From: Escherichia coli
GTDB lineage: Bacteria > Pseudomonadota > Gammaproteobacteria > Enterobacterales > Enterobacteriaceae
Length of the DNA: 64,000 nt
Assembly: GCF_030013595.1 (NCBI RefSeq)
Contig: NZ_CP122770.1
Reading direction: 5' to 3' (one strand)
The notes beneath the pieces were generated by a model. It was given only the letters and a program-made list of their open reading frames with translations. It made no database searches and had not been told where the DNA came from. The position numbers and the translations under genes were made by a program. Below, piece after piece: positions 10,025 to 11,273 of the stretch (positions within the stretch are counted from its first letter, which is position 1; each line of letters begins with the position of its first letter).

Positions 10025-10207
10025 CTACTGCTCATCAGGAAACAGCTTTTTCAGTTCTTCACCGGAAAGTCCCGTGACCTCCTGAATCCGTTCCGGCGGC
10101 CAGCCTATATCCCGAAGCCGGCAGGCTATTTCCCGCGCCACTTCAAGAGCCCCTTGTTTAAAACCCTCGTCGAAACCTTTCTGTATAAGACGTTCTGCAA
10201 TCGTCAT
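10025..10207 (-). CDS. Small protein homologous to the C-terminal domain of the adjacent Rpn-like protein
   Basis: 60 aa MTIAERLIQKGF...GLSGEELKK parallels Rpn C-terminus MTIAERLEQKGR...GLSDDELKK; starts right after Rpn terminator. Confidence 0.5.
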   Translation of the reverse strand: MTIAERLIQKGFDEGFKQGALEVAREIACRLRDIGWPPERIQEVTGLSGEELKKLFPDEQ

Positions 10208-10231
10208 GCTGTTTGCTCTGCTCCTGCTGAC

Positions 10232-10260
10232 AAAAAAAGCCCGGCATTTTGCCGGGCTTT
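10232..10260 (-). terminator. Rho-independent terminator after Rpn-like gene
   Basis: gcccggcaaaatgccgggc hairpin followed by T7 on minus strand. Confidence 0.65.
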
Positions 10261-10270
10261 GTGGTTCTCA

Positions 10271-11209
10271 TCAGTGAGTGATTTTCTTCAGTTCGTCATC
10301 GGAAAGTCCGGTAGCCTGCTTAATCTGCTCCGGCGTCATCCCCATTTTCTGAAGCTGGCACGCAATAGCCAGGGCTTTTTCAAGCGCTCCTTCCATGCGT
10401 CCTTCCATGCGTCCTTCCATGCGTCCTTCCATCCTGCCTTCCTGGCGACCTTTTTGCTCAAGACGTTCTGCGATAGTCATCAGTTTATCCTCATGCTGCG
10501 GCAGACGCTCAGCCAGCGCCCGCATAAATTCCGGTGATACAGAGTCCCCTGCGTTAACGATGTAATGAATCAGAACACGCACCTGCTCGTCTGAAATTTC
10601 CACCATGACCTGCGGGAGTTTGTCCAGCAGCTCCATCATGTCACGATGGCGGATATGCTTCATCAGCAGCGTCAGTGCGGCCATCCGGCGATGGTTCATG
10701 ATTTCATTGTCATCAACGACAGTGATATCAACCAGCGGAAACGGCTTTGTGTATATTTTAGCCGCAAGCGCCGGATTCTCAAAACAGTCCAGCCAGTTCA
10801 TGCTGTACGGGTACGGGCTGCGCTCACCGTGATAGAACAGCACCGGAATGACCAGTGGCAACGTTTTGTGCTGCTCCAGATGTCTCTGCATCGCCGCCAC
10901 ACTGTAACGTAACATGCGGAAAGGCATGTACAGATTTTCGGTGCTCTGGTGCTCGATGAGCGTATAAACATAGCCATCTTCACCCCCGGTGGTTTTCACG
11001 CTCCAGAGGATATCGCTGGCGTACTGATGCAGGTCCGGCTCAACAAAGGTGGCGGGTTCCAGCTTCAGCGTGGACAGGTCGCACAACTGCCGGTACTCCG
11101 CAGGAAGATGCAGTTCCAGAAAATCTCTGGCGACGTCGGGATTCGCCAGGAACGACCGGAACGCGGCATCATGCGGCGTGGGCGTTGTGGTGTTTTTCTT
11201 CTTACTCAC
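10271..11209 (-). CDS. Rpn-family protein (YhgA-like recombination-promoting nuclease / transposase_31)
   Basis: N-terminal PHDAAFRSFL motif; GTG at 11209 with AGGAGG RBS (track ORF starts further upstream); internal RMEG x4 repeat. Confidence 0.7.
   Translation of the reverse strand: MSKKKNTTTPTPHDAAFRSFLANPDVARDFLELHLPAEYRQLCDLSTLKLEPATFVEPDLHQYASDILWSVKTTGGEDGYVYTLIEHQSTENLYMPFRMLRYSVAAMQRHLEQHKTLPLVIPVLFYHGERSPYPYSMNWLDCFENPALAAKIYTKPFPLVDITVVDDNEIMNHRRMAALTLLMKHIRHRDMMELLDKLPQVMVEISDEQVRVLIHYIVNAGDSVSPEFMRALAERLPQHEDKLMTIAERLEQKGRQEGRMEGRMEGRMEGRMEGALEKALAIACQLQKMGMTPEQIKQATGLSDDELKKITH
10384..10446. repeat. 12-bp tandem repeat (ccttccatgcgt, ~4.5 copies) inside Rpn-like gene, encoding (EGRM)n
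   Basis: Direct reading of sequence. Confidence 0.85.
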
Positions 11210-11273
11210 GGTTCCTCCTGGTGAGATGTCTGAACGTATCCTGCCGCCTGCACAGGCAGACGGCAAGGGTTAA

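Follow-up and report, generated by a model that had tools for sequence, protein, structure and literature searches.

A diverged, free-standing RpnS paralogue behind an RpnLS-type gene in the leading region of an IncI1 plasmid

The rpn locus and its setting

The window (i.e., the whole 64,000-nucleotide stretch of DNA that was analysed) carries on its minus strand an rpn gene and, downstream of it, a small gene. Both are part of the conjugative leading region of an IncI1 plasmid, whose gene order runs oriT/nikAB, mobC, DUF4942, HTH, small ORF, rpn, two small ORFs, ardA, psiA, psiB, parB and ssb, a setting that an earlier sequence-only reading of this DNA had rightly recognised as a leading region. 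A chance pattern is excluded for the ORFs, the repeat, the terminator and the leading-region context alike. An ssi/Frpo-like element (12156..12441, no strand assigned) lies 5' of a co-directional orf144-orf88-rpn unit and is a direct repeat of the element at 9248-9538; when folded, its template (+) strand gives an extended hairpin with an energy of -95.5 kcal/mol (z -9.4). Single-strand promoters of the ssi type are known from IncI1 leading regions (PMC12672017), and the text of that paper names six operons induced during early conjugation, rpn and the small gene not being among them. An Rfam search of positions 9000-12600 returned no family.

The locus is widespread: it is present in 2,038 plasmids of PLSDB, of IncI type, the small gene occurs in 1,338 of 5,426 complete E. 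coli genomes (25%), and the small gene is represented in three Inc groups and 334 protein clusters. The arrangement had earlier been called unusual, a description that does not hold given the number of PLSDB plasmids with the locus and the fact that free-standing copies of this sort (RpnSs, e.g., ypaA after rpnE) have already been published. None of the PADLOC 2023 models matches Rpn or the small protein, and a paper on IncI1 phage-type conversion points to ibfA and another gene, not to Rpn (PMC8004404).

The large gene, rpn (encoding RpnL; 10271..11209, minus strand), is predicted from Pfam, TIGR01784 and an RpnA alignment to specify 312 aa with an N-terminal PD-(D/E)XK nuclease domain and a C-terminal RpnS domain. 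The longest frame in the ORF listing spans 10271..11266 (minus strand) from an upstream TTG, but the likely start is the GTG at 11209, 4 nt after AGGAGG, in agreement with the 939-nt PGAP CDS of a 99.9% identical plasmid (L001). Residues 12-208 match Pfam Transposase_31 (PF04754)/YhgA-like with an E value of 2.4e-78, the NCBIfam model TIGR01784 ("Rpn family") scores the protein at 180 bits against a cut-off of 52, and the RpnA equivalog model reaches E 4e-95, yet stays under the model cut-off. Identity to E. coli K-12 RpnA is 53%, and D14, D66, E86, Q88 and R98 align to RpnA D11, D63, E82, Q84 and R94, five catalytic or essential residues that are invariant columns in the alignment of Rpn, RpnA and RpnE (the phenotypes of RpnA catalytic-residue mutants are given in PMC5350276). 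A PDB sequence search with full-length Rpn found no match. Judged by these matches, the large ORF encodes an Rpn/YhgA-type PD-(D/E)XK nuclease with intact catalytic residues, as the sequence-only reading had proposed in calling it Rpn-like.

Inside rpn lies a 69-aa ORF predicted to encode the internal antitoxin RpnS (10271..10480, minus strand), beginning at Met244 (ATG 10480-10478) with GAGG 8 nt upstream; the sequence at this internal start is GAGGATAAACTG-ATG. Met244 aligns with Met244 of RpnA, an internal start established by experiment (PMC10400941), and we infer that RpnS is translated from it. A promoter-like site within rpn (10755..10782, minus strand; TTGAGA-16-TAAAAT, 10/12, from a consensus scan only) is a candidate for the RpnS transcript, and the same work describes internal transcription starts in the five rpn genes of E. 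coli K-12 and also bears out the earlier statement that Rpn C-terminal domains were reported as intragenic antitoxins (PMC10400941). The first helix of RpnS contains a 12-bp repeat tract of 5 units (10388..10447, minus strand), of which TRF reports 3.8 perfect copies at 10388-10432 (score 90), with two degenerate units completing the 60 nt. The tract keeps the reading frame and lies immediately ahead of the C-terminal domain, as the sequence-only reading had noted. It yields RQEG-RMEG-RMEG-RMEG-RMEG from 11 residues past Met244; Zhong et al. 2023 (PMC10400941) place the beginning of such four-residue repeats 8-20 residues past the Met that initiates RpnS. The proposed variability of the copy number was likewise confirmed when related plasmids were compared, in which rpn alleles of the A type (one of three C-terminal types, A, B and C) have 0-6 units. 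Precomputed annotation places PF27070 HTH_Rpn_C on the rpn products of related loci, and a single-sequence search matched 7TH0 weakly (E 0.04).

The small gene downstream of rpn

Between the two genes stands an intrinsic terminator (10229..10260, minus strand; GCCCGGCAAAATGCCGGGC followed by T7), which had also been seen in the sequence-only reading. The scan resolved it at 10260..10236 (minus strand) as an 11-bp stem with 7 G-C pairs and then T7, its fold reaches -20 kcal/mol (z -4.0), and every related locus retains the hairpin, followed by 5-7 T. It is followed by a spacer (10208..10228, minus strand) that DNA alignment and cross-locus comparison assign to the rpn region 5' of the internal start. 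The small gene has a weak Shine-Dalgarno sequence (GGAG 13 nt from the ATG), the promoter scan found no promoter belonging to it, and its expression signals are poor. An 81-aa version of its product annotated by PGAP was rejected, because the extension crosses the terminator hairpin and its frame depends on the terminator T-run (T6 in L001, T7 in the window).

The small gene itself (10025..10207, minus strand) encodes 60 aa that BLAST, TIGR01784 and fold search point to as a free-standing RpnS paralogue ("RpnSs", here of a type designated S). As the sequence-only reading had claimed, it is homologous to the Rpn C-terminal domain: BLAST aligns it to Rpn residues 244-310 with 49% identity (E 1e-15) and a single gap of 12 residues, i.e., three repeat units. 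Both RpnS and the small protein begin with MTIAERL and have a similar helix-1 frame, and the small protein matches the last 55 positions of TIGR01784 (219-273, E 3e-6). A Pfam scan of the 60-aa protein gave nothing significant, and PF27070 HTH_Rpn_C is placed on its relatives by precomputed annotation only. The structural assignment rests on fold search instead of profile search; searched with the AF2 model, the PDB gave 7TH0 RpnA-S as the best fold match (prob 0.93, TMt 0.71, E 0.46), the weak Foldseek E value being expected for a 60-aa query. Two kinds of PDB profile match were discarded, one to 7TH0 (E 1.6e-16), which is circular since RpnA-S was in the profile, and others to designed PPR repeat proteins, which are inflated and built from many weak stretches.

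In the multiple alignment the closest relative of the small protein is the A-type upstream RpnS (58-59% identity), by a modest margin, the other values being 53% for B, 44% for C, 47% for RpnA-S and 37-39% for RpnE-S/YpaA; this accords with local duplication as its origin. The small gene is found behind all three rpn C-terminal allele types (A, B and C). The earlier view of it as a copy of the adjacent gene's own domain needs correcting, as 49-58% identity and conservation behind three allele types mark it, on sequence grounds, as an old, diverged paralogue and not a fresh copy. DNA alignment delimits the duplicated unit from ~20 nt before the ATG through the common CTGATGAG at the stop. A truncated second rpn copy was considered and rejected, since there is no nuclease-domain homology upstream of the small ORF and homology starts only ~20 nt before its ATG; the sequence-only reading had named a truncated remnant without expression signals as the outcome that would count against it, and of this the remnant part fails whereas the part on poor expression signals stands.

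Comparison with homologues discloses a repeat tract in the small gene too, with 2 diverged units (FDEG, FKQG; 10151..10174, minus strand), and its homologues have 0-6 units and lengths of 52-76 aa, a variation that the sequence-only reading had missed. All 11 alleles are intact, repeat changes stay in frame, and pN/pS is 0.22; the module inside rpn has 0.12, and neighbouring genes lie at 0.09-0.14. The small gene is under purifying selection, as would be expected equally of an expressed protein and of a cassette.

Repeat numbers and recombinant modules

The repeat units of Rpn and the small gene number 5/2 (window), 0/6, 2/3, 1/2, 6/2 and 2/1 in six A-type haplotypes, i.e., they are equal in none of the six, a sample too small to prove independence. 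For RpnC, and demonstrated for RpnC only, a one-repeat mismatch abolishes neutralisation (Zhong et al. 2023, PMC10400941), so that the unequal numbers argue against the small protein neutralising the adjacent Rpn, and the earlier suggestion that it could modulate Rpn activity loses its footing. Such a second antitoxin or modulator, tuning the adjacent RpnL during early leading-region expression in the recipient, would be in keeping with its homology to RpnS (same first seven residues, similar helix-1 frame), with an intact and constrained ORF, with an ssi/Frpo-like hairpin upstream of the unit and with the production of its K-12 counterpart YpaA in cells (PMC10400941). We nevertheless consider this role unlikely, given a mismatch in every haplotype seen, only 49% to 58% identity to the resident RpnS, the presence of the same small gene behind three Rpn C-terminal types, and a strong terminator, a weak Shine-Dalgarno and an absent promoter before the small gene. 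The small protein probably does not serve the adjacent RpnL of this plasmid as its antitoxin.

Recombinant forms of the locus point to exchange of whole modules. A 12-nt block, GCAGAACGTCTT, is common to rpn (10460..10471, minus strand), where chimeric junctions suggest a crossover site, and to the small gene (10187..10198, minus strand), which would supply its partner. A nuclease domain fused to an S module is found in pCL059-1 (L044) and in 12 or more further plasmids, and three-module arrays are found at three loci (L020, L021 and L041). At the chimeric junctions of L020 and L041 (free A-type module) and of L044 (fusion), the type switches across this block. Fusions and three-module arrays each make up ~1% of plasmids; a fusion count of up to 301 was rejected, as a spread sample showed one-piece junction matches only in the top 12-29 records. 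The junctions fit, by their sequence, reciprocal products of unequal crossover in the common 12-nt block, and could alternatively stem from gene conversion or exchange between plasmids, not from one reciprocal event.

A probable spare antitoxin cassette and its known relatives

We consider it probable that the locus is a plasmid RpnLS toxin-antitoxin/antiphage nuclease accompanied by a free-standing RpnS paralogue, and that the small gene is mainly a spare cassette. This reading joins what was observed directly (homology, conserved motifs, repeats that vary in the large and the small gene alike, purifying selection, a terminator and recombinant junctions) to toxicity, neutralisation, repeat-based specificity and an antiphage role, all carried over from Zhong et al. 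2023. By this analogy, full-length RpnL would be a PD-(D/E)XK DNA endonuclease that is toxic by itself, and the internal start at Met244 would give RpnS, a 69-aa three-helix protein whose long first helix would bind the identical C-terminal domain of RpnL and block the nuclease. Each 12-bp unit would add four residues to this helix, fixing which RpnS suits which RpnL; unit number shifts quickly among plasmids. The 60-aa gene goes back to an old duplication of the module, comprising the RpnS ORF and the ribosome-binding region, and has diverged while being retained behind different rpn alleles. We take it to be mainly a spare C-terminal or antitoxin cassette, or at most an orphan RpnS with weak expression. 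Through unequal crossover in the 12-nt block near the module 5' ends, the cassette could join the nuclease domain, or a displaced module could stack as an extra small gene.

The same poor signals (a position behind a terminator, an absent promoter, a degenerate ribosome-binding site), together with the annotation of K-12 ypaA as a pseudogene, would also suit a relic without function that linkage has retained since an earlier duplication or exchange of the C-terminus; we hold this to be improbable, as the ORF is intact in 11/11 alleles and spread over three Inc groups and 334 protein clusters, its pN/pS of 0.22 is near that of neighbouring genes, its repeat changes remain in frame, and the S module is re-used as an Rpn C-terminus in the fusion plasmids. 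Least probable is an orphan antitoxin for anti-defence, one that would neutralise Rpn nucleases with an S-type C-terminus in recipients or competing IncI plasmids, for although leading regions are enriched in orphan antitoxins proposed to act against host or competitor toxin-antitoxin defences (PMC11541004), full-length Rpn with an S-type C-terminus exists (L044 and at least 12 plasmids) and the wide repeat-number variation of the small gene would be expected in an arms race, such Rpn is rare (~1%) and seen in the same plasmid family only, the C-termini of chromosomal RpnA and RpnE are only 37-47% identical to the small protein, and the small gene has weak expression signals. A more far-reaching proposal, a long shot, takes two forms: promoter-less RpnS modules stacked downstream of rpn might form a cassette store, from which recombination through short homology at the 12-nt block, possibly promoted by the Rpn nuclease, would swap the specificity/antitoxin domain at the toxin C-terminus, or the free module might be expressed soon after conjugative entry, serving as an orphan antitoxin against the S-type Rpn of recipients or rival IncI plasmids.

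The kind of gene, its repeat variation and small downstream copies have been known since 2023, when Zhong et al. (PNAS, PMC10400941) described RpnS from an internal start, variation of four-amino-acid repeats, downstream "RpnSs" copies and loss of RpnSs through fusion, on chromosomes and plasmids. Added here are the divergence of the small gene behind three alleles, its own repeats, the selection on it, the repeat mismatch and the recombinant junctions. As a discovery the locus matters little, ranking with the most frequent features that IncI plasmids have. It does offer a natural data set of ~2,000 plasmids with a nuclease toxin and two independently repeat-variable antitoxin-type modules, in a region transcribed early after conjugative transfer and with the recombinant forms in the same collection, which could be used for points left by Zhong et al., i.e., the evolution of repeats and module exchange and the role of free-standing copies.

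With the RpnLS systems (RpnA-E and plasmid RpnP2; PMC10400941, PMC5350276) the locus shares the Transposase_31 PD-(D/E)XK domain and catalytic residues, a Shine-Dalgarno sequence ahead of an internal Met244, a C-terminal three-helix domain and strain-variable four-residue repeats (a hydrophobic residue combined with charged ones or glycine), here 11 residues after the Met. It differs in its place on IncI-complex plasmids, where it belongs to the leading region and follows an ssi/Frpo-like element, and its identity to RpnA is 53%; the text of Zhong et al. 2023 gives no plasmid type for RpnP2. Like the RpnSs genes ypaA (rpnESs, after rpnE) and rpnCSs (after rpnC; PMC10400941), the small gene is a separate ORF from a Met matching the internal start, has its ribosome-binding region duplicated too (the K-12 ypaA duplication also begins just before the ATG), varies in its own 4-aa repeats and is lost by fusion to the rpn N-terminus. 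It has, however, diverged much further from the module upstream of it than has K-12 ypaA, the 5' part of which is almost the same as rpnE; a strong terminator parts it from rpn, whereas 12 nt lie between the rpnE stop and the ypaA start; and, unlike ypaA or rpnCSs, it persists behind three upstream module types, with two free modules in a row in some plasmids.

The orphan antitoxins of plasmid leading regions (Samuel et al. 2024, PMC11541004) occupy the same island of ardA, psiB and ssb plus a small antitoxin-like gene, but here a complete toxin gene with an internal antitoxin adjoins the small gene and an anti-defence role would be hypothetical. A parallel outside toxin-antitoxin systems is the TAEL repeat of the HsdS subunits of EcoR124I/EcoR124II, as cited in PMC10400941, in which in-frame four-residue helix repeats likewise alter partner or target specificity; the HsdS repeat, unlike that of Rpn, determines the spacing within the DNA target of a type I restriction enzyme and not a toxin-antitoxin pairing, and the proteins are not homologous.

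The rpn gene and its free-standing small companion

The locus is best explained as an RpnLS toxin-antitoxin/antiphage gene with an RpnSs companion, both of known kinds. The rpn ORF lies on the minus strand, and although the ORF listing starts it at a TTG (11266), the GTG at 11209, 4 nt past AGGAGG, is the likely start, giving 312 aa; the same 939-nt CDS is annotated by NCBI in a plasmid of 99.9% identity. In profile searches the protein hits Pfam Transposase_31 (YhgA-like; E 2.4e-78) and NCBIfam TIGR01784, [quoted passage not shown] (180 bits, cut-off 52), and is 53% identical to RpnA of E. 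coli K-12. Mutation of D11, D63, E82, Q84 or R94 abolishes RpnA activity (PMC5350276), and all of these residues align in the window Rpn (to D14, D66, E86, Q88 and R98), so the nuclease motifs are intact and their possible lack, raised in the sequence-only reading, is ruled out.

In E. coli K-12, each of the five rpn genes also encodes a small protein, RpnS, translated from an internal start; RpnS binds the full-length nuclease RpnL and neutralises its toxicity (Zhong et al. 2023, PMC10400941). Structurally, RpnS consists of three bundled helices and forms dimers via its long first helix. Four-residue repeats in this helix, of strain-variable number, begin 8-20 residues after the initiating Met, and a plasmid-encoded member, RpnP2, protects against T-even phages (PMC10400941). 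Each part of the window finding has thus been described before for these genes. In the window Rpn the Met of the internal start is residue 244, at a position matching the proven RpnA start and with GAGG 8 nt 5' of its codon, and the repeat tract begins 11 residues later. Tandem Repeats Finder gives 3.8 perfect copies of a 12-bp unit (10388-10432); with two degenerate units counted in, the tract spans 60 nt (10388-10447) and encodes RQEG followed by four RMEG.

Beyond the rpn stop come an intrinsic terminator (10260..10236, minus strand; 11-bp stem plus T7, -20 kcal/mol, z -4.0) and the 60-aa small ORF (10025-10207), which aligns to Rpn residues 244-310 with 49% identity (E 1e-15) and a single 12-residue gap equal to three repeat units. 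The sequence-only reading was thus right about the repeat-bearing Rpn-like ORF, the terminator and the C-terminal homologue. DNA similarity to the rpn 3' end runs from ca. 20 nt before the ATG, i.e., the ribosome-binding region, to a common CTGATGAG at the stop. As similarity is limited to this region and the RpnS ORF, with no nuclease-domain trace upstream of the small ORF, the small gene is a duplicated module, and a truncated second rpn is ruled out as its source. The duplicated unit of ypaA in K-12, 12 nt after the rpnE stop and with a duplicated AAAGGAGAGATTAATG, likewise begins just 5' of the ATG. The small protein aligns with the final 55 positions of TIGR01784 (E 3e-6), its relatives carry precomputed assignments to Pfam HTH_Rpn_C (PF27070), and its AlphaFold model (pLDDT 75) finds as best PDB fold match 7TH0, the RpnA-S crystal structure (probability 0.93, target TM 0.71, E 0.46); by sequence and modelled fold, it is an RpnS homologue.

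A search among 5.8 billion proteins returned 334 relatives, the best 120 of which are all small proteins. Their lengths step at 60, 64, 68, 72 and 76 aa because the number of GFKE/GFKQ units varies, or are 21 aa longer because the T-run length of the terminator can place the rpn-stop ATG in frame. With further loci included, small-gene units range from 0 to 6 (two diverged units in the window), so this gene is itself repeat-variable. The frame effect is seen on comparing positions 10229-10273 of the window with L001 and other related plasmid loci: a T6 run (L001) puts the ATG that overlaps the rpn stop (TGATGA) into the frame of the small ORF, and the T7 of the window breaks this frame. For in-frame loci gene callers give 81/85/89/93-aa proteins whose first 21 residues span the terminator hairpin.

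An extra copy of this kind had been thought unusual, a view that does not hold: RpnSs genes are published (PMC10400941), the 1.35-kb locus has matches in 2,038 PLSDB plasmids (1,949 with 80% or more of the locus covered), nearly all conjugative and from Escherichia, Salmonella and Shigella, and among 5,426 complete E. coli genomes 1,338 contain the small gene, with 1,428 of its locations on plasmids and 15 on chromosomes. The finding is ordinary as a discovery, and what interest remains lies in its many natural variants, a large data set on how repeats and modules evolve in a toxin gene of the leading region.

Repeat number and the role of the small gene

Across 40 related loci (plasmids IncI1, IncI-gamma/K1 and IncK2/Z), at least three types of rpn C-terminal module occur, A (as in the window; RQEG/RMEG repeats), B (IQQG) and C (IQKG/IQQG), and the S-type small gene is found behind all three. 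Repeat number varies across related plasmids: a spread sample of plasmids contains A-type rpn alleles of every unit number from 1 to 6, each well represented except the 6-unit class (one row), and a 0-unit allele occurs in L002-L011. Paired rpn/small-gene unit numbers are 5/2 in the window, 0/6 in L002-L011, 2/3 in L018-L019, 1/2 in L022-L026, 6/2 in NZ_KY748189 and 2/1 in NZ_CP083514; they are equal in none of these six A-type haplotypes and show no sign of matching, six pairs being too few to prove independence.

One repeat added to RpnC-S abolishes neutralisation unless RpnC-L has the same extra repeat (PMC10400941). Given this rule and the unit mismatch, the small protein should not neutralise the adjacent Rpn, and the idea that it modulates its neighbour, put forward in the sequence-only reading, is possible and less likely. 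We consider that the cognate antitoxin of the window Rpn would be its own internal RpnS, and that the downstream gene would serve mainly as a C-terminal/antitoxin cassette, spare and exchangeable, with perhaps a low level of expression. An orphan antitoxin that counters defences, as has been suggested for leading regions (PMC11541004), is again possible and less likely for a gene whose expression signals are poor: no promoter-like site was found for it, its GGAG is 13 nt from the ATG and a strong terminator stands upstream. These signals bear out half of the suspicion that the ORF is an unexpressed remnant of a second rpn, the remnant half having failed; a functionless relic is likewise possible and less likely, as the small ORF is constrained (pN/pS 0.22, 11 alleles, repeats removed, beside 0.12 for the in-gene A-type module).

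In some plasmids rpn is damaged and the small gene intact. The rpn of L002 (about 1880-2440) is 5'-truncated, with only 137 in-frame codons ahead of the internal Met, and adjoins DUF1281, DinI and Peptidase_S24 genes; that of L023 (1612-2501) is broken into two ORFs, of 212 and 87 aa.

Recombinant forms

Three plasmids (L020, 2009-2695; L021; L041, 3323-3990) carry three-module arrays of a B-type rpn, a free A-type RpnS gene of 53 or 57 aa and a free S-type gene, with a separate hairpin and spacer ahead of each free module. In L044 (Shigella sonnei pCL059-1, 1941-2864) an S-type module is joined in frame to the nuclease domain and the free small gene is absent; at least 12 other plasmids share this junction. 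Module 5' ends have two differing positions ahead of a common GCAGAACGTCTT block: in-gene A reads ATGACTATC-GCAGAACGTCTT-GAGCAA, free S ATGACGATT-GCAGAACGTCTT-ATACAG, free A of the arrays ATGACGATT-GCAGAACGTCTT-GAGCAA and the L044 fusion ATGACTATC-GCAGAACGTCTT-ATACAG. By their sequence, the last two would be the reciprocal products expected of unequal crossover inside the 12-nt block. Searches for these junctions gave 12-29 fusion records and roughly 20 free-A records, suggesting that each class makes up ca. 1% of plasmids. Deletion and fusion with the rpn N-terminal domain are published routes of RpnSs loss, and recombination, perhaps begun by RpnL, was speculated to be the source of downstream copies (PMC10400941); the junctions are consistent with that idea and do not by themselves point to a catalyst of the exchange.

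The rpn nuclease domain has mosaic A/B-type ends and a pN/pS of 0.50 (21 alleles; window 10481-11209 plus related loci), far above the 0.09-0.14 of neighbouring genes; both features hint at diversifying selection or recombination.

Leading-region surroundings

The window is an IncI1 plasmid, and the gene order of the closest record (oriT/nikAB, mobC, DUF4942, HTH gene on the other strand, small ORF, rpn, two small ORFs, ardA, psiA, psiB, parB, ssb) places the locus in the leading region, as had been proposed. Two copies of a ca. 300-nt element (9248-9538 and 12156-12441; 71-94% identical across aligned blocks) lie on either side of the genes HTH-small ORF-rpn-orf88-orf144. The upstream copy (12156-12441) folds into a long hairpin on the plus (template) strand (-95.5 kcal/mol, z -9.4) and looks like an ssi/Frpo-type single-strand promoter, a class described for IncI1 leading regions in the text of PMC12672017, which contains no statement placing rpn among genes induced early.

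The HTH gene (83 aa, 9743-9994, plus strand; pN/pS 0.14) is convergent with the small ORF on the opposite strand, separated from it only by a GC-rich hairpin without a T-run (9996-10034, -18.8 kcal/mol), and has a weak PADLOC match to mad1 (E 0.0033). Between the ssi-like element and rpn lie the conserved, co-directional orf88 (88 aa, 11274-11540) and orf144 (144 aa, 11632-12066), both on the minus strand and without a match in NCBIfam or PADLOC; orf88 is strongly constrained (pN/pS 0.09). IS21-family, IS91-family or IS421 insertions are frequent just 5' of rpn (L022, L029, L030, L034-L036, L041), and other plasmids (L004-L006, L024, L028, L033) have an additional ORF of 129 aa that overlaps the start of rpn.
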